DNA from: Escherichia phage 348Ecol098PP
DNA length: 64,000 bases
Sequence record: OR062947.1
Direction: 5' to 3' (one strand)
Position numbers and translations under genes: made by a program. Of the stretch, positions 3,652-57,664 are shown one piece after another; position 1 is the first letter of the stretch; every line of letters begins with the position of its first letter. The notes below the pieces were generated by a model that was not told where the DNA came from, did no database searches, and worked only from the letters and a program-made list of their open reading frames with translations.

Positions 3652-3899
3652 GTTTTGCACAGGAATTAAGAGAAAGGGCTCTGGCCACTAAAGCTAATTT
3701 GTTGAGTGATTTTATTACTAACTTCTCTGTGATGGCAGAGAAAGCTGCTGACAAAGGTCAGACACAATTCACGTACTATCCATCAAAGAATGATTTAACT
3801 ATCACTGAGCAAGTCGGGCAGTGGTTACGTGATAATGGCTTTCAGTATAAAATTAATCACGACCAGCGTGATGGTCATTGGATAGAAATCAAGTTCTAA
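3648..3899 (+). CDS. Hypothetical protein (T4 24.2 position)
   Basis: 83 aa ORF, start overlaps previous stop (ATGA). Confidence 0.4.
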   Translation: MSFAQELRERALATKANLLSDFITNFSVMAEKAADKGQTQFTYYPSKNDLTITEQVGQWLRDNGFQYKINHDQRDGHWIEIKF

Positions 3900-3901
3900 T
3901 A

Positions 3902-3927
3902 TGCTTTACATTTTTTGATGGTATAAT
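3902..3927 (+). promoter_or_regulatory. MotA-box type middle promoter (TGCTTTA, 13 nt, TATAAT) upstream of rnlB
   Basis: aTGCTTTAca at 3902-3908 and TATAAT at 3922-3927. Confidence 0.5.
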
Positions 3928-4018
3928 GAATCTAGGTTCTATCCATTCAAATTAAACATCTGGTCGGAGACAGAGTCTCTGCTAATTATTTTGATATTAT
4001 TATTTATAATGGTGATTT

Positions 4019-5017
4019 ATGTTTAAGAAATACAGCAGTCTTGAAAACCACTACAACTCTAAGTTTATTGAAAAACTCTACACTAATGGTTTGACTACTG
4101 GTGTTTGGGTAGCACGTGAGAAAATCCATGGGACCAACTTCTCGTTAATAATTGAACGTGACAACGTCACATGCGCCAAGCGCACAGGCCCTATTCTTCC
4201 AGCAGAAGATTTTTATGGTTATGAAATCGTACTCAAGAAGTATGATAAAGCTATTAAAGCCGTTCAGGAATTCATGTACACAGCTCGAGCCGTATCATAT
4301 CAAGTATTCGGTGAATTCGCTGGTGGTGGAATCCAGAAAGGTGTTGACTACGGTGAAAAAGATTTTTATGTGTTCGATATCCTTATCAATACAGAAAGTG
4401 GTGATAATACGTATTTGACCGATTACGAAATGCAAGATTTCTGTAATGAATTCGGTTTTAAAATGGCACCAATGCTTGGTCGTGGCACATTTGATGCTCT
4501 TATCATGATTCCAAACGACCTTGATTCTGTCTTAGCCGCTTATAATGCTACTGCGTCAGAAGACCTTGTCGAAGCAAATAATTGTGTATTTGATGCTAAT
4601 GTTATTGGCGATAATACGGCAGAAGGTTATGTTCTGAAACCTTGTTTTCCTAAATGGTTGCCAAACGGTACTCGTGTAGCTATTAAGTGCAAGAACTCTA
4701 AATTCAGTGAAAAGAAAAAGTCTGATAAGCCTATTAAAACTCAGGTTCCATTAACCGAAATTGACAAAAACTTGCTTGATGTCCTAGCTTGTTATGTTAC
4801 ATTAAACCGTGTTAATAATGTGATTTCTAAGATTGGGACTGTAACGCCAAAAGATTTTGGCAAAGTGATGGGATTGACTGTTCAAGATATTCTGGAAGAA
4901 ACTTCTCGTGAAGGTATTGTATTAACATCATCCGATAATCCGAATCTTGTTAAGAAAGAATTAGTCCGAATGGTGCAAGATGTTCTGCGTCCTGCATGGA
5001 TTGAATTAGTATCATAA
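4019..5017 (+). CDS. rnlB: RNA ligase 2
   Basis: 332 aa; lysine-adenylation motif KIHGTN near N-terminus; position next to gene 24 as in T4; preceded by MotA-box type promoter. Confidence 0.85.
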
Positions 5018-5020
5018 CTA

Positions 5021-5048
5021 AAAAGGGACCGTAAGGTCCCTTTTTTTG
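5021..5048. terminator. Bidirectional terminator between rnlB (+) and gene 24 (-)
   Basis: GGGACC-GTAA-GGTCCC flanked by A-run and T-run. Confidence 0.65.
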
Positions 5049-5049
5049 T

Positions 5050-6333
5050 TTATTCATCTATAATAATTTTAGGCAATTTAACACCGAGTAAAACAGACAA
5101 GTCTGAACGTCCTGCCATTTTATCCATGTCCCCACCATCAATTATTCTCGCTTCTTTTTCGTCTTTTGCTACTGTGTAAGGATTTGCTGATAAAGCATAT
5201 CTAACCAATAATCCAATAGACGGTTGCAAGCTTTCTGGATCAACTACAACTTTAAATGCACCAACATGTTCCGGGTCATCTAAATCTACTCCTTCAGTGT
5301 ATGGAGCATAAAAGATGGACCCTACAATTTCTTTTTCGCCGATATTTTCTACAACACCCACAATAACATAATCTAACGGACTGTTGGTATCGCAGTAAAG
5401 AGGTAATCCATTTGCCAAGAATCCATAAGCATTTTGTGAAAGATACTTGTCATCTTCTGGCTTATGTTTTAACCAACCAGAAGCAGCAAGAATAGCAGCT
5501 GCACGAGCTGAGGCTACACAAAACGTTGCAGTATAAGTTGTCTCTTTTTGAATGTGTGATACCATTTCACACACCATTCGATATAATGAACGACCTGCTT
5601 CTGGAGCGGATGCATAGCTCAAGTCAATAAATCCAGTGTCAGTAATTCCAGTAACTTTATAACGTTTCGATACAGTAATTAAAGACTGAAGAATATCTTT
5701 ATTAATTTCATCAGCCATTTCAGTAGCAAGCAAATCTTCTAAGAAGTTAGGGGCATCAAATCCATTCGCTTCTAAATCTTGCGCTAATTCGACCGTGAGG
5801 CCAGTTTTAAGTTTACGAGATTTGACTGAAGTTTGCCATTTATTAATCTGGAATCTTGCATCAGAAATTTCGCTATCGGAGCTTTCAAATTTGCTTGTTA
5901 CCGCTGCATCTGAAAATAACCGTACCTTTAAATGAACGACTGCAATTTGAAGAGCTAATTCTAGATCACTTTCTTGAATATCTGCAAATGGTGTATCTTC
6001 TAACACCTTATAGACGATATTATTATATTTGAAAAAATCACCTTTATTTAGTGTGACTTTTGATTCTTCTGTGAGCTCAGTAATTTTTTCTCGGTCTACA
6101 TATCCAACTTCACCCGCATAAGTAGCACCAGTTTTAAATGTGAATTCATTATCTGGGTTAAGATATTTGATACCATAAAAAGCAGCAACAGGCTGATTAG
6201 TTCTTTGTGTTGCTACAATGTCAGAATATATTAATTTAGTCGTAGCGCGAGTCAAAGCAACGAGATTTGGGCGACCAATTGAGTTGCTAGTAGACGTTGT
6301 AGATTCACGCAATAATTTTTGGATTTTACTCAT
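5050..6333 (-). CDS. 24: Capsid vertex protein gp24
   Basis: 427 aa, same length as T4 gp24; synteny upstream of gene 23; late promoter at 6361-6368. Confidence 0.9.
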   Translation of the reverse strand: MSKIQKLLRESTTSTSNSIGRPNLVALTRATTKLIYSDIVATQRTNQPVAAFYGIKYLNPDNEFTFKTGATYAGEVGYVDREKITELTEESKVTLNKGDFFKYNNIVYKVLEDTPFADIQESDLELALQIAVVHLKVRLFSDAAVTSKFESSDSEISDARFQINKWQTSVKSRKLKTGLTVELAQDLEANGFDAPNFLEDLLATEMADEINKDILQSLITVSKRYKVTGITDTGFIDLSYASAPEAGRSLYRMVCEMVSHIQKETTYTATFCVASARAAAILAASGWLKHKPEDDKYLSQNAYGFLANGLPLYCDTNSPLDYVIVGVVENIGEKEIVGSIFYAPYTEGVDLDDPEHVGAFKVVVDPESLQPSIGLLVRYALSANPYTVAKDEKEARIIDGGDMDKMAGRSDLSVLLGVKLPKIIIDE

Positions 6334-6360
6334 TGCATTTTTTCCTTATGTGATATAGAT

Positions 6361-6368
6361 TATTTATA
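6361..6368 (-). promoter_or_regulatory. Late promoter TATAAATA (gene 24)
   Basis: Plus-strand TATTTATA upstream of gene 24 start. Confidence 0.6.
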
Positions 6369-6374
6369 AAGATT

Positions 6375-6434
6375 GTTTACAACGTATTTGGTACGTGATA
6401 CTATAGACTTATCAACTACAGAGGAGTAAACAAA
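6375..6434 (+). promoter_or_regulatory. Early promoter cassette: -35 GTTTAC, 18 nt, extended -10 TGaTACTAT, 5'UTR with SD GAGGAG
   Basis: GTTTAC 6375-6380, TACTAT 6399-6404; 6395-6440 identical to 42998-43043. Confidence 0.6.
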
Positions 6435-6704
6435 ATGACTAAAGCACGTTTCTTACGAGATACTTTAAAAGTTCTGGAAGCTGAAGCAGTTAAGTTAGTA
6501 GAAAAATATGGTGCAAAAGTTAATGGTAATGCCTTCAACAAAGTATGGATGAAAGTTGATTCTGAAGCTCGAGCTAAAGGTTATTGGGCCACTGATAAAC
6601 TTGCATCATTCAAAAACAAAGACGGTTCTCCAGCATATGTCCAAGAAGGTATGCCTAATTGGCAAAATATTTTGAAAACTTACATCGAAATTGCACAGAA
6701 ATAA
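6435..6704 (+). CDS. Hypothetical protein expressed from an early-promoter cassette, antisense to flanking capsid genes
   Basis: 89 aa ORF with SD GAGGAG, own GTTTAC/-10 promoter, followed by hairpin terminator; sits between genes 24 and 23. Confidence 0.5.
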   Translation: MTKARFLRDTLKVLEAEAVKLVEKYGAKVNGNAFNKVWMKVDSEARAKGYWATDKLASFKNKDGSPAYVQEGMPNWQNILKTYIEIAQK

Positions 6705-6707
6705 AAC

Positions 6708-6736
6708 CAAAAATGGGAGACCGAAGTCTCCCAAAA
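6708..6736. terminator. Bidirectional terminator between ORF 6435-6704 (+) and gene 23 (-)
   Basis: GGGAGAC-CGAA-GTCTCCC flanked by A-rich runs. Confidence 0.6.
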
Positions 6737-6756
6737 TAAGATTTAATCAATTAAGA

Positions 6757-8325
6757 TTAGATGCCTTTTACATATACACGGCGGAAGTAAGCGTTCTTAC
6801 CAAGGCTGTTCAGGATAGACGGCATACCGGACTGGATGCGAGCACCTGGAGCCTGCAGGGAACTTTCAGCAAACGGGTTAACACCGATACCGTAACGAGT
6901 TTTAAAGCCCATTACCGGCTGGAAGTTCTTAGGATCGGAACCACGCAGTGGGGTAAGTGCAACGTAAGGAGCATAGTAAATACCTGCATCCATTTCGTTA
7001 GCGCCTTTGTAACCAACGGTGAAGTAATCCTGTTTAGCATACTGGTCGATGTATACGCGGTATTTACCACCAAGTACACCGGCAAATACAGACTTAGTAG
7101 TGTCGGTATTAAAACCAGAAGCCAGACCCTGTGCAGCATAAGAAATACCAGTATCAACTGAAGCCAGTACGTTAACTACGTTACGGGAAGCGATAATGAA
7201 GTTACCTTCACCACGACCGGTTTGACGAGCAATTTCAACTGCTTCTTTATCAATCTGGAACAACAGAGATTTAAAGCTTTCACCGGCCCAACGAGCACCA
7301 CGGATATCAATCGGGTCCTGGAAGTCAAATACACCAGCTTTAGAACCCGGAGTCAGGGTCATACCAGATTTACCAACCTGTGCCGAGTAGTTAATCCAAT
7401 CAACAACTTCACGGTTGATTTCTAGCATAATTTCTGTAGCCAGAATACCGCTCAGTTCAGCATCAGCATCCATACCGTGTACTGCACGGAGGTCTTGTGC
7501 CAATTCGATGGAGTAAGCAGCTTTCAGCTGGCGAGATTTAGCTTCGATAACTTGTTTATCGATACGGAAGCCCATTTCGTTCCACGGGTTGTCGGTAGAA
7601 CCGTTGAAACCTTCCTGGAGTTCAGCGATAGAAGTAGCCATACCTTCAGCGATTTCTACCAGTGCACCAGCTTCCATTTGTTTCTTAACTTCTGCATCTA
7701 ATTTAGCTGCATCAGTTGCACCAGAATCAAGTGTTACGATAGCAGAAGCTTGCAGATATACAGTACCAGTTTCTTGGAAGAAGTGAGTATAGATATCACC
7801 TACAACAGTAGTAGTGTCAGCAGCCAGAGCTGGGAATTTCTTAGCAGCACCCTGTCCAGAGAACATCGCGTCTGGGGCATACATCGGATGGAAAGCTTCT
7901 TTAGCGCCAGCAGCGATAGGGTCTTTACCATATACTGCACGGAGAGCAAATACCTGACCGGTAGGGCTGTTCATAGGCTGAACACCACAAATATCAAAAG
8001 CGATCAGATTAGGAATAGCACGACGAACCATACCCATAACTGCCGGCCCAATTTGGGTTACTGCACCAGAGGTTTGACCTGCTGCGATGTTCTGAGCATT
8101 ATAACCGTGGTCACCACCAATTTCAGCTTCGGTCAAGAAAGAACCAAATGCCTGAGCGATTTTCTCGTCTTTATATTCAGGGGATACTTCGAAATCTTTT
8201 TCCTGGTTTTCGAAGATTTTAGCGATAATAGCCTGCTTGCTATTAGCGATTTCCGGCAGGCCTTCACCTTCCAGCAGTTCTTTCCATTTGTCTACGAGCT
8301 GAGCTTTAGTTTTGATAGTAGTCAT
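6757..8325 (-). CDS. 23: Major capsid protein gp23
   Basis: 522 aa; N-terminal MTTIKTKAQL...GLPEIANSKQAIIAKIFENQEKDF and body closely match remembered T4 gp23. Confidence 0.97.
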   Translation of the reverse strand: MTTIKTKAQLVDKWKELLEGEGLPEIANSKQAIIAKIFENQEKDFEVSPEYKDEKIAQAFGSFLTEAEIGGDHGYNAQNIAAGQTSGAVTQIGPAVMGMVRRAIPNLIAFDICGVQPMNSPTGQVFALRAVYGKDPIAAGAKEAFHPMYAPDAMFSGQGAAKKFPALAADTTTVVGDIYTHFFQETGTVYLQASAIVTLDSGATDAAKLDAEVKKQMEAGALVEIAEGMATSIAELQEGFNGSTDNPWNEMGFRIDKQVIEAKSRQLKAAYSIELAQDLRAVHGMDADAELSGILATEIMLEINREVVDWINYSAQVGKSGMTLTPGSKAGVFDFQDPIDIRGARWAGESFKSLLFQIDKEAVEIARQTGRGEGNFIIASRNVVNVLASVDTGISYAAQGLASGFNTDTTKSVFAGVLGGKYRVYIDQYAKQDYFTVGYKGANEMDAGIYYAPYVALTPLRGSDPKNFQPVMGFKTRYGIGVNPFAESSLQAPGARIQSGMPSILNSLGKNAYFRRVYVKGI

Positions 8326-8342
8326 TTGTGTTAACCTTTAAA

Positions 8343-9155
8343 TTAGAAACGAGATGCGACTTTCGCATATAAACTTACATTAGAATTCTGTTCTACCTGA
8401 GTTGTGGTAGTGTCAACTGCTTCGGCAACAAAATTAAGACCGGCAGCGTCATTGTCAACTGTATTTATACTTTCGGTAATAGCGGCTTCTTCTTTAGTAG
8501 AACCTTTAACCATTTCTACAATAGCAGTTAACTTAGTACCAAATGCGTCAGAATAATCCATACCTTCAACCAGGCCAATAACTTTTTCTTTCTGAGATTC
8601 AGTCAGGTCTTTTACGCTTTCATTAATAGCGGTTTCACGCTGAACGTAATTGATATATGCATCACGTTTGGTAACTTCTTCGAACAAACGAGCGGTTTCT
8701 TCTTTATGTTCGGCCAGCTCTTCTTCCATTTCTGCTACAACATCTACAGATTCTTCTGGAACAACAACGTTATGTTCAACAAACAGTTCTTTCAGACCAC
8801 CAAGCATGGATTCGAACAAATCAGCTTTAATGCCTTTATCAACTGCGATTTGGTTTTCTGCGAGCCATTCTTTTGCAAGATGGTCTAGGAATTTAGAAGC
8901 TTGTTCAGCCAATTTTTTATCAGCTTTCTCTTCAGCATCTTCTTTAGCCTTTTCAACTTCTTCTTCGGCCTTTTCGGCGATGGCTTTGATATGAGATTCA
9001 GCCAGTTTGACTGCTTCCTGCTTAACGGTGGCTTCGAATACAGTGCTGAAATTAGCTTTAACGTCCGGAGACAGTTCTACTGATTCGAAAACACTATTAA
9101 GAGCAACTGAAGTCTCGATGTTCTGAGCTTCTTTCAAAAGTTGTTCTTTGATCAT
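8343..9155 (-). CDS. 22: Prohead core scaffold protein gp22
   Basis: 270 aa, acidic coiled-coil, synteny 21-22-23. Confidence 0.85.
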   Translation of the reverse strand: MIKEQLLKEAQNIETSVALNSVFESVELSPDVKANFSTVFEATVKQEAVKLAESHIKAIAEKAEEEVEKAKEDAEEKADKKLAEQASKFLDHLAKEWLAENQIAVDKGIKADLFESMLGGLKELFVEHNVVVPEESVDVVAEMEEELAEHKEETARLFEEVTKRDAYINYVQRETAINESVKDLTESQKEKVIGLVEGMDYSDAFGTKLTAIVEMVKGSTKEEAAITESINTVDNDAAGLNFVAEAVDTTTTQVEQNSNVSLYAKVASRF

Positions 9156-26076: not shown

Positions 26077-26084
26077 TATTTATA
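26077..26084 (-). promoter_or_regulatory. Late promoter TATAAATA (gene 9)
   Basis: Plus-strand TATTTATA between gene 8 terminator hairpin and gene 9. Confidence 0.55.
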
Positions 26085-26089
26085 GATAC

Positions 26090-26115
26090 AAAAATGGGAG
26101 CCCGAAGGCTCCCTA
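26090..26115 (-). terminator. Hairpin after gene 8
   Basis: GGGAGCC-CGAA-GGCTCCC between gene 8 stop and gene 9 late promoter. Confidence 0.5.
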
Positions 26116-26116
26116 A

Positions 26117-27121
26117 TTAAAACATAAACAAAATGTTAATTTCTTCTGTTTGGTCCATTGCCATAATAACAGGTGGGCGGTTTTCCATATAAATCATTTC
26201 ACCAGAATGACGTTGCAGGTCTCTAGGGTCGTAATAATCCTTTTCTGCTTTAACATTAGGGTCATTTGGATTTTTCTTAGCTTCTAACGGGTTTGCGATA
26301 ATTGATATCTGTCTAAAACCCTTGTTACCAGGCAAAGCTGCCTCAGGGAAATAAACAGAATCAAAATATGCTTTAAACCGCATCGTATTAGCTTTAACAC
26401 GGTAAATCAAGCCGTAGTCATCTTGTTGCCAAGTTAAGTTATTTTCATATCCCCAACGGGTGGGGTCTTCTTTAATTTCTTCCGGCCATGGAACTACAAG
26501 ATATTCATTAGTGCAACGGTTAATTGACACATCGGCAGGAATCTCATAAAGATATTCCCAAATATATCCATCACCGGTTTCGATAACCCCATTAGCATCG
26601 CCTCTGCCTTCAGGAGGAGACATAGAACGAACAGACGGGGTCCATTTACCACCTAATTTAAGACATTCATCTTTATTATCTAAAGATTCTATTGAACAGA
26701 GCCCTACGTCAGGGACATCTAAACAACGGTAAATTAACCAACCGGCTCCAACTTCTGTCGCGTTATACGGAGCAGTATTACATGCGACTATATCGTTAAT
26801 TCTAAACGTGTAAGGGTCTGGATATCGCACATCTCCCCAATCACGTCTAGGAATAACAGAATCTAACATTGAAGGTAAAACTTTAACGGTGCCCATCATA
26901 TGGGTCCACATATCAGTAACGCCAAGAACAGAATCTGTAGGATAAGGTGGGGCGAAGCCCACCTCATTTTCATTTGACGCCCAAGGCTCTGAACGTCCAA
27001 ACGTAATATAAATGGAGTTCTTATCGTCTCCATCCCCAACTGAATTATAAAAATTCAGCATTTTCTCTGTTCTAAATTTTGATGTAACTATTGCACGATA
27101 GATAACACTTGAATCATTCAT
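26117..27121 (-). CDS. 8: Baseplate wedge protein gp8
   Basis: 334 aa (same as T4), synteny. Confidence 0.85.
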   Translation of the reverse strand: MNDSSVIYRAIVTSKFRTEKMLNFYNSVGDGDDKNSIYITFGRSEPWASNENEVGFAPPYPTDSVLGVTDMWTHMMGTVKVLPSMLDSVIPRRDWGDVRYPDPYTFRINDIVACNTAPYNATEVGAGWLIYRCLDVPDVGLCSIESLDNKDECLKLGGKWTPSVRSMSPPEGRGDANGVIETGDGYIWEYLYEIPADVSINRCTNEYLVVPWPEEIKEDPTRWGYENNLTWQQDDYGLIYRVKANTMRFKAYFDSVYFPEAALPGNKGFRQISIIANPLEAKKNPNDPNVKAEKDYYDPRDLQRHSGEMIYMENRPPVIMAMDQTEEINILFMF

Positions 27122-41851: not shown

Positions 41852-41884
41852 TATAGCCCCTTCCGAAAGGTTGGGGCTTTTTTG
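41852..41884 (+). terminator. Rho-independent terminator after tRNA/small-RNA region
   Basis: AGCCCCTTCCGAAAGGTTGGGGCT + TTTTTT; same module as 57113-57145. Confidence 0.65.
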
Positions 41885-41892
41885 TATAAATA
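41885..41892 (+). promoter_or_regulatory. Late promoter TATAAATA upstream of the 208-aa CTS-bearing gene
   Basis: TATAAATA 36 nt upstream of ATG 41928. Confidence 0.55.
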
Positions 41893-41927
41893 TAGTAAAC
41901 AATAAACCTACTTTCTAAGGACCGTCA

Positions 41928-42554
41928 ATGTATACTTTTAATGAATTTTTAGCCGAAACGGAAGTAATCACCGAAGCCGGTGTACGTATGACAAAAGAGA
42001 AATGGCAAGCTGCTTACGATGCTATTTCTGGTACAAAAACTAGTACAGAGTTTTTCAAAAACGTTCAAGCCATGTACGGTATCGACACTTCCAGCCAAAA
42101 AGAATATTACAGAGCTTCTAAAGCATTCAAAGATATTGTTAGTGGTGGTGTTTCTGCTAAATCGGGTTCGCCTAAAGTAAAACCTGCTCCTACCATTCCT
42201 AAACCTGCGACCCCTAAAGCAATAGCAAAACCTGAGCCTAAGCCGGAAGTAAAAGCAACTCCTAAAGCTCCTGCTCTTAAGTTTGATACTTCTAGCCTGG
42301 AAAAAAAATATAAACAACTATCTTCGCTTGTTCGCGATATTGAATCCGATACATCTTCACTCGTTCGTGAATTCAATAGTCTTCGTAATGGCCAACATAT
42401 CAACAACCTTGATACCCCGGACCTTTATCGTCTTTATTTGACTATCGAAGGTTTGAAGTACACTCAACCACTTCACGACGCGATTAAAGAAAAACTTCGT
42501 CAGGCAGGTCGTTTGGCTGCTGACGCTGCTCAGTATGCAAAAACTCGTAAGTAA
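41928..42554 (+). CDS. Internal-protein-like (large), leader MYTFNEFLAE, proline/lysine-rich linker
   Basis: 208 aa; CTS-like N-terminus; PKVKPAPTIPKPATPKAIAKPEPKPEVKATPKAP linker; TATAAATA late promoter at 41885-41892. Confidence 0.55.
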   Translation: MYTFNEFLAETEVITEAGVRMTKEKWQAAYDAISGTKTSTEFFKNVQAMYGIDTSSQKEYYRASKAFKDIVSGGVSAKSGSPKVKPAPTIPKPATPKAIAKPEPKPEVKATPKAPALKFDTSSLEKKYKQLSSLVRDIESDTSSLVREFNSLRNGQHINNLDTPDLYRLYLTIEGLKYTQPLHDAIKEKLRQAGRLAADAAQYAKTRK

Positions 42555-42635: not shown

Positions 42636-42663
42636 AGACCTATCAAAACACGTGGAGAATATT

Positions 42664-42969
42664 ATGAGTCTTTACACTGAACTGAATAAAAAATCTGAAG
42701 AATCCGCTGAAACTATTTTTAAAAACGTGCAAAAGCGTATTTTAGAAAAGATGTATAACACTGCAGCTAAAGGTGAAAAATCTTGCCGGTTTCCGATTAG
42801 GTGTTCTTCAGATTTATGCGCAAATACTATTGAATGGCTGGAAAGTGAAGGTCTTACAGTAGAGAAAAACCCGGCGACTTCTATTGACGGCGAATCATAT
42901 ATTAGTATTTCTTGGGATAAACCACGTATGAATGAAGGACACTACAAGTTGTTAAGTTGGAAAAATTAA
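42664..42969 (+). CDS. Hypothetical protein
   Basis: 101 aa from MSLYTELNKK with SD GGAGAA; early promoter upstream. Confidence 0.45.
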   Translation: MSLYTELNKKSEESAETIFKNVQKRILEKMYNTAAKGEKSCRFPIRCSSDLCANTIEWLESEGLTVEKNPATSIDGESYISISWDKPRMNEGHYKLLSWKN

Positions 42970-42978
42970 AAATAATGA

Positions 42979-43007
42979 TGTACAAGCACCAAGGATGGTG
43001 ATACTAT
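42979..43007 (+). promoter_or_regulatory. Early promoter TGTACA / TGaTACTAT (duplicate of 6395-6404 -10 region)
   Basis: TGTACA 42979-42984, 17-nt spacer, TACTAT 43002-43007. Confidence 0.55.
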
Positions 43008-43043
43008 AGACTTATCAACTACAGAGGAGTAAACAAAATGACT
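42998..43043 (+). repeat. 46-bp exact duplicate of 6395-6440 (promoter -10, 5'UTR, SD, ATGACT)
   Basis: gTGATACTATAGACTTATCAACTACAGAGGAGTAAACAAAATGACT at both loci. Confidence 0.8.
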
Positions 43044-43202
43044 ACTTTAATTATTTGGTTCGATGAAAATGAAGAAACATACTGTGTGAATATTGGTGAA
43101 AGTCCAATGCCTGAATTTGAATCCTCAGATAAAAACTCTGTTGTATCTTGGGCTGAAGGTTATAAAGCAGCTAAAGGTGACGTTGAAATAATTTACATCT
43201 AA
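43038..43202 (+). CDS. Small hypothetical protein (54 aa)
   Basis: Below ORF-track cutoff; preceded by the exact promoter/5'UTR cassette also found at 6395-6440. Confidence 0.35.
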   Translation: MTTLIIWFDENEETYCVNIGESPMPEFESSDKNSVVSWAEGYKAAKGDVEIIYI

Positions 43203-43220
43203 GTAAGTTTATGTTATAGT
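43191..43220 (+). promoter_or_regulatory. Early promoter ATTTAC / TGTTATAGT
   Basis: -35 43191-43196, TATAGT 43215-43220; followed by AGTCCTATCAAA box. Confidence 0.5.
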
Positions 43221-43248
43221 AGTCCTATCAAATCAAGAGGAAAACAAA

Positions 43249-43476
43249 ATGGCTAAAGTTAGTATTGATGTCGTTGATTATGAATACACCGAAGAAGTTA
43301 TTCGCAACCGTCACCCTGAAGTTCGTATCGATTCAGCCCAAGATTCCAAGTTCTGGACAACTGAGCTTAATCTGAGTGGTCCTTATGAAGCTGTTAAGAA
43401 GTTCATGGTTGAAGAATACTGCGAAGGCATGCACCCGGAAGACGCCAAGTTTTATGTCAATTTGATTAAAAAATAA
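43249..43476 (+). CDS. Hypothetical protein
   Basis: 75 aa ORF with early promoter. Confidence 0.45.
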   Translation: MAKVSIDVVDYEYTEEVIRNRHPEVRIDSAQDSKFWTTELNLSGPYEAVKKFMVEEYCEGMHPEDAKFYVNLIKK

Positions 43477-46046: not shown

Positions 46047-46050
46047 AACA

Positions 46051-46088
46051 GTTTACAACAAGATAGGGCTATGTTATAGTAGTCCTAT
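46051..46088 (+). promoter_or_regulatory. Early promoter GTTTAC / TGTTATAGT with imperfect IR ATAGGGCT / AGTCCTAT
   Basis: GTTTAC 46051-46056, TATAGT 46075-46080. Confidence 0.55.
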
Positions 46089-46108
46089 CAAATTAAATGG
46101 AGTCCACA

Positions 46109-57112: not shown

Positions 57113-57145
57113 ACTAGCCCCTTCCGAAAGGTTGGGGCTTTTTGG
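57113..57145 (+). terminator. Rho-independent terminator after rI
   Basis: Same hairpin+T-run module as 41852-41884. Confidence 0.65.
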
Positions 57146-57607: not shown

Positions 57608-57645
57608 TTTACAACTTGGTAGGACTATGTTATAGTAGTCCTACC
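57607..57645 (+). promoter_or_regulatory. Early promoter inside IR GGTAGGACTA / TAGTCCTACC
   Basis: GTTTAC 57607-57612, TATAGT 57631-57636; IR 57618-57627 and 57636-57645. Confidence 0.55.
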
Positions 57646-57664
57646 AAAACAAATGGAGAACAAA

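Follow-up and report, generated by a model that had tools for sequence, protein, structure and literature searches.

In the 64,000-nt window of Escherichia phage 348Ecol098PP analysed here, two small genes 36.6 kb apart start with the same 47 bp, which cover the -10 element, the leader, the ribosome-binding site and the first codons. We consider it probable that this repeat is the scar of a short-patch ectopic exchange between two dispersed early promoter/leader/SD cassettes, by which the leader of a resident gene between the capsid genes 24 and 23 was overwritten.

The 47-bp repeat and its two loci

According to its matches, the window belongs to the genus Mosigvirus of the Tevenvirinae (RB69-like T-even phages). 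Bases 5000-8400 are 95-99% identical to about 150 RB69-like phages, with MM02, NicPhage and PhAPEC2 as the best matches at 98.9%. An exact-match search of the 64-kb window found that positions 6395-6441 and 42998-43044, both on the plus strand, are identical over 47 bp. The initial annotation had reported this repeat with a length of 46 bp; the identity is confirmed, but the A after ATGACT is shared as well. The 47-mer is the longest exact direct repeat of the window, the next ones being a 29-bp terminator pair and promoter cores of about 24 bp. No further site with three or fewer mismatches is present in the window, where none was expected from 100 shuffles, and the best third match within the window reaches 32/47. 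An exact scan of the IMG/VR viral contigs with 36 nt of the cassette, for further genomic contexts, returned no match. As a separate observation, intrinsic terminators of the window also recur in nearly identical form at distant sites. For example, 41854-41882 and 57115-57143 share the exact 29-bp sequence TAGCCCCTTCCGAAAGGTTGGGGCTTTTT, and the gene 23 terminator (6701-6750) is 78% identical to the terminator at 26082-26131.

The content of the repeat is as previously described: the extended -10 (TGaTACTAT, 6396-6404 in copy 1), the 5'UTR with the presumed start site, the SD sequence GAGGAG (6421-6426) and the first two codons (ATG at 6435, followed by ACT), plus one further base. The distance from GAGGAG to ATG is 8 nt in both copies. 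Both edges of the identity are sharp, with only 23/60 identical positions in the left flank and 16/60 in the right flank; the 5' edge falls in the -35/-10 spacer and the 3' edge at codon 3. It also holds that the -35 regions, both outside the repeat, are unlike (GTTTAC at 6375-6380 versus ATGTAC at 42978-42983) and that the ORFs behind the two copies are unrelated, since the 89-aa ORF (phrog_6003) and the 54-aa ORF (phrog_5461) belong to different PHROG families. Judging from these comparisons, the 47-bp identity must stem from copying between two non-homologous loci; chance or a mere consensus would be impossible as its source.

At locus 1, the order is hoc, 24.3, 24.2 and rnlB on the plus strand, gene 24 on the minus strand, the 89-aa ORF on the plus strand and gene 23 on the minus strand, followed by genes 22, 21 and 68. 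Gene 24 (capsid vertex protein, 5050-6333, minus strand) is a 427-aa ORF matching the annotated gp24 of PhAPEC2 and other Mosigvirus, and gene 23 (major capsid protein, 6757-8325, minus strand) is a 522-aa ORF annotated as gp23 in relatives. The early-type 89-aa ORF (6435-6704, plus strand) therefore lies opposite to both capsid genes, in agreement with the initial annotation. The T4-type late promoter of gene 24, TATAAATA, is an exact match at 6361-6368 on the minus strand, 28 nt upstream of the gene 24 ATG. It stands back-to-back with the early -35 GTTTAC (6375-6380, plus strand), which is resident at the locus and starts seven bases past TATAAATA. A consensus scan gave this early promoter as TTTACA-17-TACTAT preceded by TG. 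With the layout GTTTAC-18-TGaTACTAT and an AT-rich block upstream, it matches the T4-type early consensus (GTTTAC, about 17-18 bp, TGnTAnnnT, A-rich upstream). The RB69 equivalents of both promoters were predicted by Nolan 2006, as late Pl:109573 for gene 24 and early Pe:109605 for locus 1.

The 89-aa ORF is of the RB69ORF188c family, is an annotated CDS in relatives and matches phrog_6003 (E=2e-45), a PHROG family without known function. A Pfam search with the protein gave no family above cut-off, DUF4859 being sub-threshold at 17.9 bits against a cut-off of 22.6. The AlphaFold model of the protein has a pLDDT of 86.6, and a Foldseek search with it found nothing in PDB at E<=0.001 and only a same-family member in BFVD. 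A literature search for RB69ORF188c and RB69ORF145c by ORF name found no papers. In RB69 itself (NC_004928, about 109291-109571), a +1 and a -1 frameshift, accompanied by clustered substitutions, divide the gap ORF into ORF188c and ORF189c. The cause is either decay of the gene in the laboratory strain or errors of the early sequencing, and the frameshifted reference suggests that the phage can do without this gene under laboratory conditions.

The initial annotation had also given the 89-aa ORF a bidirectional terminator of its own. This candidate was rejected, because the U-tract is on the minus strand only and the hairpin is that of the gene 23 intrinsic terminator (6704-6733, minus strand), which overlaps the stop codon of the 89-aa ORF. 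The loop of the hairpin (6714-6733) is UUCG, and a T-run extends down to 6704; on the minus strand the hairpin reads GGGAGAC-UUCG-GUCUCCC (TGGGAGACTTCGGTCTCCCA) and then TTTTTGGTTT, while on the plus strand it is followed by AAATAAGATT with no U-tract. Terminator calls are confined to the gene 23 strand both in our window scan and in the ARNold annotations of PhAPEC2 and KAW3E185. An Rfam scan of 6200-6900 gave nothing close to any gathering score. No GIY-YIG endonuclease ORF is present in the 423-bp gap (6334-6756), the 89-aa protein being its sole ORF.

Locus 2 is in the e.6-e.8 region, with the order RB69ORF146c-like gene (42652-42969), 54-aa ORF (43038-43202), frd.3-like gene (43249-43476) and e.6. 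Its -35 region ATGTAC (42978-42983, plus strand) is orthologous to GTGTAC of T2, slur04 and Lutter, and the promoter has the layout ATGTAC-18-TGaTACTAT behind the AT-rich AAAAATTAAAAATAAT. The RB69 equivalent was predicted as the early promoter Pe:72567 (Nolan 2006). Copy 2 of the repeat (42998-43044, plus strand) heads the 54-aa ORF (plus strand), which is RB69ORF145c (phrog_5461, E=1e-35) and has orthologues with the same ATGACTACT start in T2 (T2_134) and in about 110 Tequatrovirus records at 80-90% identity. The cassette is present at locus 2 in every Mosigvirus genome examined. The next early promoter/leader cassette (43190-43251, plus strand), a member of repeat family D1, heads the frd.3-like 75-aa ORF. 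Since the -10, start site, 5'UTR and ribosome-binding site are the same at the two genes of the repeat, we infer that both would be expressed alike and immediately after infection. The GGAG in the shared ribosome-binding site is a motif of the RegB type.

The gene 24-gene 23 gap in related phages

With the 89-aa protein as query, tblastn returned 239 phage records, of which about 120 have at least 80% identity and 119 less than 60%. JS98 (Dhakavirus) and VR20 (Gaprivervirus) have distant homologues (31-38% identity) in this gap, in the same orientation, and three T4-like contigs from metagenomes have intermediate alleles (61-71% identity), which also stand between gp24 and gp23. The family is also found in the gap of KAW3E185 and LF82-4. 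In all of these, the small ORF has the strand and the -35 seen in the window and is back-to-back with the late promoter of gene 24. Across the genera, the family at locus 1 stands behind at least four different -10/leader versions. The orthologous leaders in relatives are quite different and evidently functional. When the gap was aligned for six phages, the gene 24 leader, the TATAAATA box and the (G/A)TTTACA -35 were orthologous throughout, and the -10/leader/SD segment was lineage-specific. The TATAAATA block is kept in T4, JS98, VR20, KAW3E185 and LF82-4, and the position of the -35 is conserved in all genera compared, T4 having ATTTAC there. The bases of copy 1 that differ from its locus-1 orthologues extend from about 6398 to 6431. 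Among the outgroup alleles, P0005 is the nearest, at 70% aa identity; it agrees with the window from codon 3 on (AAAGCACG), but its leader is different and its codon 2 is AAT. On this comparative evidence, the 89-aa gene is a resident of the gap, and only a 34-47-bp -10/leader/SD segment was replaced in the lineage of the window.

The initial annotation had concluded that the cassette inserted an early-type gene into the late block, which does not agree with homologues sharing gap, strand and -35 across genera behind other leaders. It had further proposed that the regulatory cassette moves as a unit; an exchange of -10, leader and SD is supported, but the cassette is without a -35 of its own. 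Its proposal had been set against a picture in which related phages all have the same ORF and an invariant cassette in the 23-24 gap. The ORF family is indeed shared, but the cassette varies. Overall, the earlier reading of regulatory cassettes as exchange points is partly supported: it was right in spirit, and wrong on the gene insertion and on the ORF's own terminator.

LF82-4, KAW3E185 and JK45 (Mosigvirus) have a JS98-type allele in the gap, directly followed by a segD-like homing endonuclease gene (1571-2230, 3681-4340 and 41892-42551, respectively). The imported JS98-type tract has its left end at the SD in LF82-4 but within the leader of gene 24 in KAW3E185, and these tracts of allele plus endonuclease gene look like products of endonuclease-driven co-conversion. 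In T4, the gap between genes 23 and 24 is occupied by segD in the opposite orientation, in agreement with the initial annotation. At this T4 locus (AF158101, 5234-5323), ATTTAC, 18 bp and TGaTATTAT precede segD next to the gene 24 late promoter, and this promoter-like site is the positional homologue of the locus-1 early promoter. According to a 2010 review, no promoter specific to segD could be identified. On two of the metagenomic contigs, two tandem gp24-like genes (337-2901; 427 and 426 aa) stand upstream of the small ORF, which indicates a putative duplication of the vertex protein gene.

Two further junctions were found in the cassette. PhAPEC2 is without the 54-aa ORF, and its ORF54 cassette is joined to the frd.3 leader 211 bp downstream (locus about 5262-5308), the partner being the cassette that corresponds to 43190-43251 in the window. 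The junction sequence is ...ACAGAGGAG|AAACAAAATGGCT, also given as ...CAACTACAGAGGAG|AAACAAAATGGCT, with the break after GAGGAG. The tandem cassettes are 211 bp apart and were joined within their SD, which is the outcome expected of an excision of the PeSL type discussed below. AV117 and ATK47 gave single-piece matches to this junction and have apparently also lost ORF54. The LF82 phages are identical to the window at locus 1 up to GAGGAG, and then continue with the JS98-type leader end, ORF and homing endonuclease gene. The claim that recombination takes place near the start codon is consistent with these junctions, which are located in the cassette near the SD and start codon, the breaks of PhAPEC2 and LF82-4 both following GAGGAG. 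By the junction sequences, a single cassette was used in three independent exchanges, namely the PhAPEC2 type, the LF82 type and that marked by the edges of the 47-bp identity.

The proposed exchange and its rivals

We propose that the 89-aa gene was already in the 24-23 gap, divergent from gene 24, with an early promoter whose -35 abutted the late promoter. In an ancestor of most Mosigvirus, about 34-47 bp of the locus-1 -10, leader and SD, perhaps including codon 2, would have been overwritten, and the donor was most probably the matching segment of the e.8-region gene RB69ORF145c. The exchange would have been homologous, non-crossover and gene-conversion-like. The similarity of about 60-85% among cassettes would be the homology used by the T4-type recombination system, which works efficiently on short homology, and a heteroduplex or synthesis-dependent patch would have copied one leader into the other cassette. 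Within the window, the early promoter/leader cassettes have a mutual identity of about 60-70%, with longer exact cores. A crossover between the direct repeats would cost the phage 36.6 kb of essential genes, so that only patch events would survive. Instead of a single genome, two phages infecting the same cell could have supplied the partners of the exchange.

No difference separates the two copies in the window, in ST0 or in O157 typing phage 3. Private changes were seen in copy 1 alone for RB69 (3 substitutions) and in copy 2 alone for APCEc01, mar008P4 and JK45 (1 each). Ongoing concerted evolution of the two copies was considered and rejected on account of these private changes; the sequences are best explained by one old event, after which the copies drifted slowly and independently.

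For the direction of transfer, locus 2 (the RB69ORF145c leader) appears the likelier donor and locus 1 the recipient. Locus 2 is favoured by the presence of the cassette there in all Mosigvirus examined, together with the sequence shared by Tequatrovirus. KAW3E185 and JK45 have the cassette at locus 2 although their locus-1 leader is of the JS98 type. In Tequatrovirus (T2, slur04 and Lutter), locus 2 shares the upstream flank CAAGGAyGGTG, GGTG.TA.TATAGACTTATC and the ATGACTACT start, with a mid-leader that is not conserved and has small indels relative to Mosigvirus. We account for the limited strength of the direction evidence by two facts. Firstly, the metagenomic allele P0004 also begins with ATGACTAAA behind a different leader, which weakens codon 2 (ACT) as a direction marker and makes it non-diagnostic. 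Secondly, the first 21 nt of the cassette are near a widespread consensus, JS98 locus 1 matching 18/21.

The reverse or an outside origin is unlikely in our view. In this reading, the leader came from the 23-24 locus or from another phage, and the e.8-region gene received its copy, for example, through inter-phage recombination or through co-conversion linked to the segD-like endonuclease. In its favour, direction markers are few, the Mosigvirus leader at locus 2 differs in its middle part from the Tequatrovirus orthologues, and homing endonucleases evidently drive traffic at locus 1. Nevertheless, the cassette is at locus 1 in only a subset of the Mosigvirus that all have it at locus 2, GACTTATC and ATGACTAC are common to Mosigvirus and Tequatrovirus at locus 2, and no locus-1 outgroup has the leader of the window.

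It is improbable that the identity is functionally maintained, with the two genes co-regulated through their leader (e.g. by RegB at GGAG or by a translational repressor) and a locus-1 antisense RNA helping to silence gene 23 until late. Such an early antisense RNA across gene 23 could arise, since there is no plus-strand terminator between the locus-1 promoter and gene 23.

Quite improbable is the movement of promoter/leader, 89-aa ORF and terminator as one unit, whether as a moron or as a PeSL mini-circle, into the 24-23 gap. PeSL+ORF cassettes and mini-circles are documented in RB49/phi1 (PMC2839356, PMC4122927), and the gap is variable, with segD in T4 and an ORF plus homing endonuclease gene in KAW3E185, LF82-4 and JK45. 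By the comparative data, however, this reading already appears largely refuted: behind other leaders, homologous ORFs stand in the same gap in three or more genera and also in relatives from metagenomes, the -35/late-promoter block on the left is orthologous throughout, T4 included, the repeat leaves out the -35 and reaches only to codon 3, from where the ORF is orthologous to P0005, and the terminator is that of gene 23.

Finally, convergence of both leaders on one optimal early promoter/leader/SD under selection, with no transfer at all, can draw on a strong T-even consensus (83-87% matches to the 47-mer stand before alc, regB, denV and frd.3 in other T-even genera), but it would need many independent lineages to reach the same 47-mer and is very unlikely in view of 47/47 identity including non-consensus positions when other cassettes of the same genome reach at most 32/47, the sharp edges, and the quite different yet evidently functional orthologous leaders at locus 1.

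Relation to known shuffling modules

The idea of cassette shuffling is already published as PeSL-mediated modular shuffling. PeSLs are composites of an AT-rich region, early -35/-10, SD and ATG which serve as linkers for modular shuffling (Arbiol 2010, PMC2839356; Comeau 2014, PMC4122927). They are dispersed in multiple copies as intergenic homology patches for the insertion, deletion and replacement of small ORFs, and their crossovers were mapped between -10 and ATG and between -10 and SD (PMC2839356, PMC4122927). The window cassette is similar in having an AT-rich region and early -35/-10, with SD/ATG at the 3' end, and in having its junctions inside the element beside variable ORFs (after the SD in PhAPEC2 and LF82-4, and at codon 3). 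It differs in being without a convincing stem-loop, and thus is not a textbook PeSL: in folding, locus 2 had z=-0.87, and locus 1 reached z=-2.06 through a pairing of -35 and leader that locus 2 does not have. Two other differences are that one copy, instead of being in a hyperplastic region, is part of the conserved capsid block, and that the leader of a resident gene was patched with no gain or loss of an ORF. Its membership in the PeSL class would therefore be partial, with the promoter, the SD/ATG and the junctions in agreement and the stem-loop not. As for other promoters of the window, some early promoters have a 10-12-bp perfect palindrome across the -10 (GATAGGACTA-tgttatag-TAGTCCTATC), at 46062-46089, 57616-57647 and other members of family D1 (39202, 39530 and 47345). 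The neighbouring promoters at 46050 and 57606 both have such a palindrome, and the fold of the 57606 copy has a z of -3.4. By analogy, these palindromic -10 promoters resemble the published PeSL class whose stem-loop overlaps the -10.

Of the analogues with T4 early promoters, the nearest are the 5' modules of the T-even IP genes, which are based on early promoters and reach into the first codons of unrelated genes (Repoila 1994, as discussed in PMC2839356). According to that discussion, these modules are thought to mediate shuffling (Repoila 1994, in PMC2839356). A difference is that the shared IP codons encode a capsid-targeting peptide, whereas the pair in the window shares Met-Thr only, with no peptide function implied. 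Elsewhere in the window, seven dissimilar small ORFs on the plus strand (38892, 39265, 41928, 50077, 50837, 51162 and 51502) have a MKTYQEFIAE-like start, and their first 10 or so codons constitute the repeat families D5 and D7 at the DNA level. We take the MKTYQEFIAE-like decapeptide to be the T4 internal-protein capsid-targeting sequence. These seven ORFs look like a large set of putative IP-type genes with a common 5' module.

When compared to the T4 segD locus, locus 1 has the same intergenic gap, the same orientation opposite to the capsid genes and the same late-promoter block. However, segD of T4 is a free-standing GIY-YIG homing endonuclease gene, while the gap of the window is without an endonuclease and the 89-aa ORF is unrelated to SegD. 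Morons (Hendrix/Juhala), which are autonomous promoter-gene-terminator units, are similar in that a small ORF with its own predicted promoter is placed between late structural genes. They differ in that the position of the 89-aa ORF is kept across genera and it has no terminator of its own, and a regulatory sequence as the vehicle of exchange, as proposed here, is outside the moron concept.

We therefore regard the repeat as a mostly ordinary recombination footprint, of a type already described for T4-type phages, which involves no new mechanism. For annotation, it is a warning that identical 5' ends do not mean related genes. For the RB69-like phages, it is a clean natural case in which conserved early promoter/leader cassettes served as linkers for recombination, with three independent junctions in one cassette, one of them within an otherwise conserved capsid gene block. 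It would also extend the PeSL idea to a cassette without a stem-loop, in which only the expression signals were swapped and the gene was kept.
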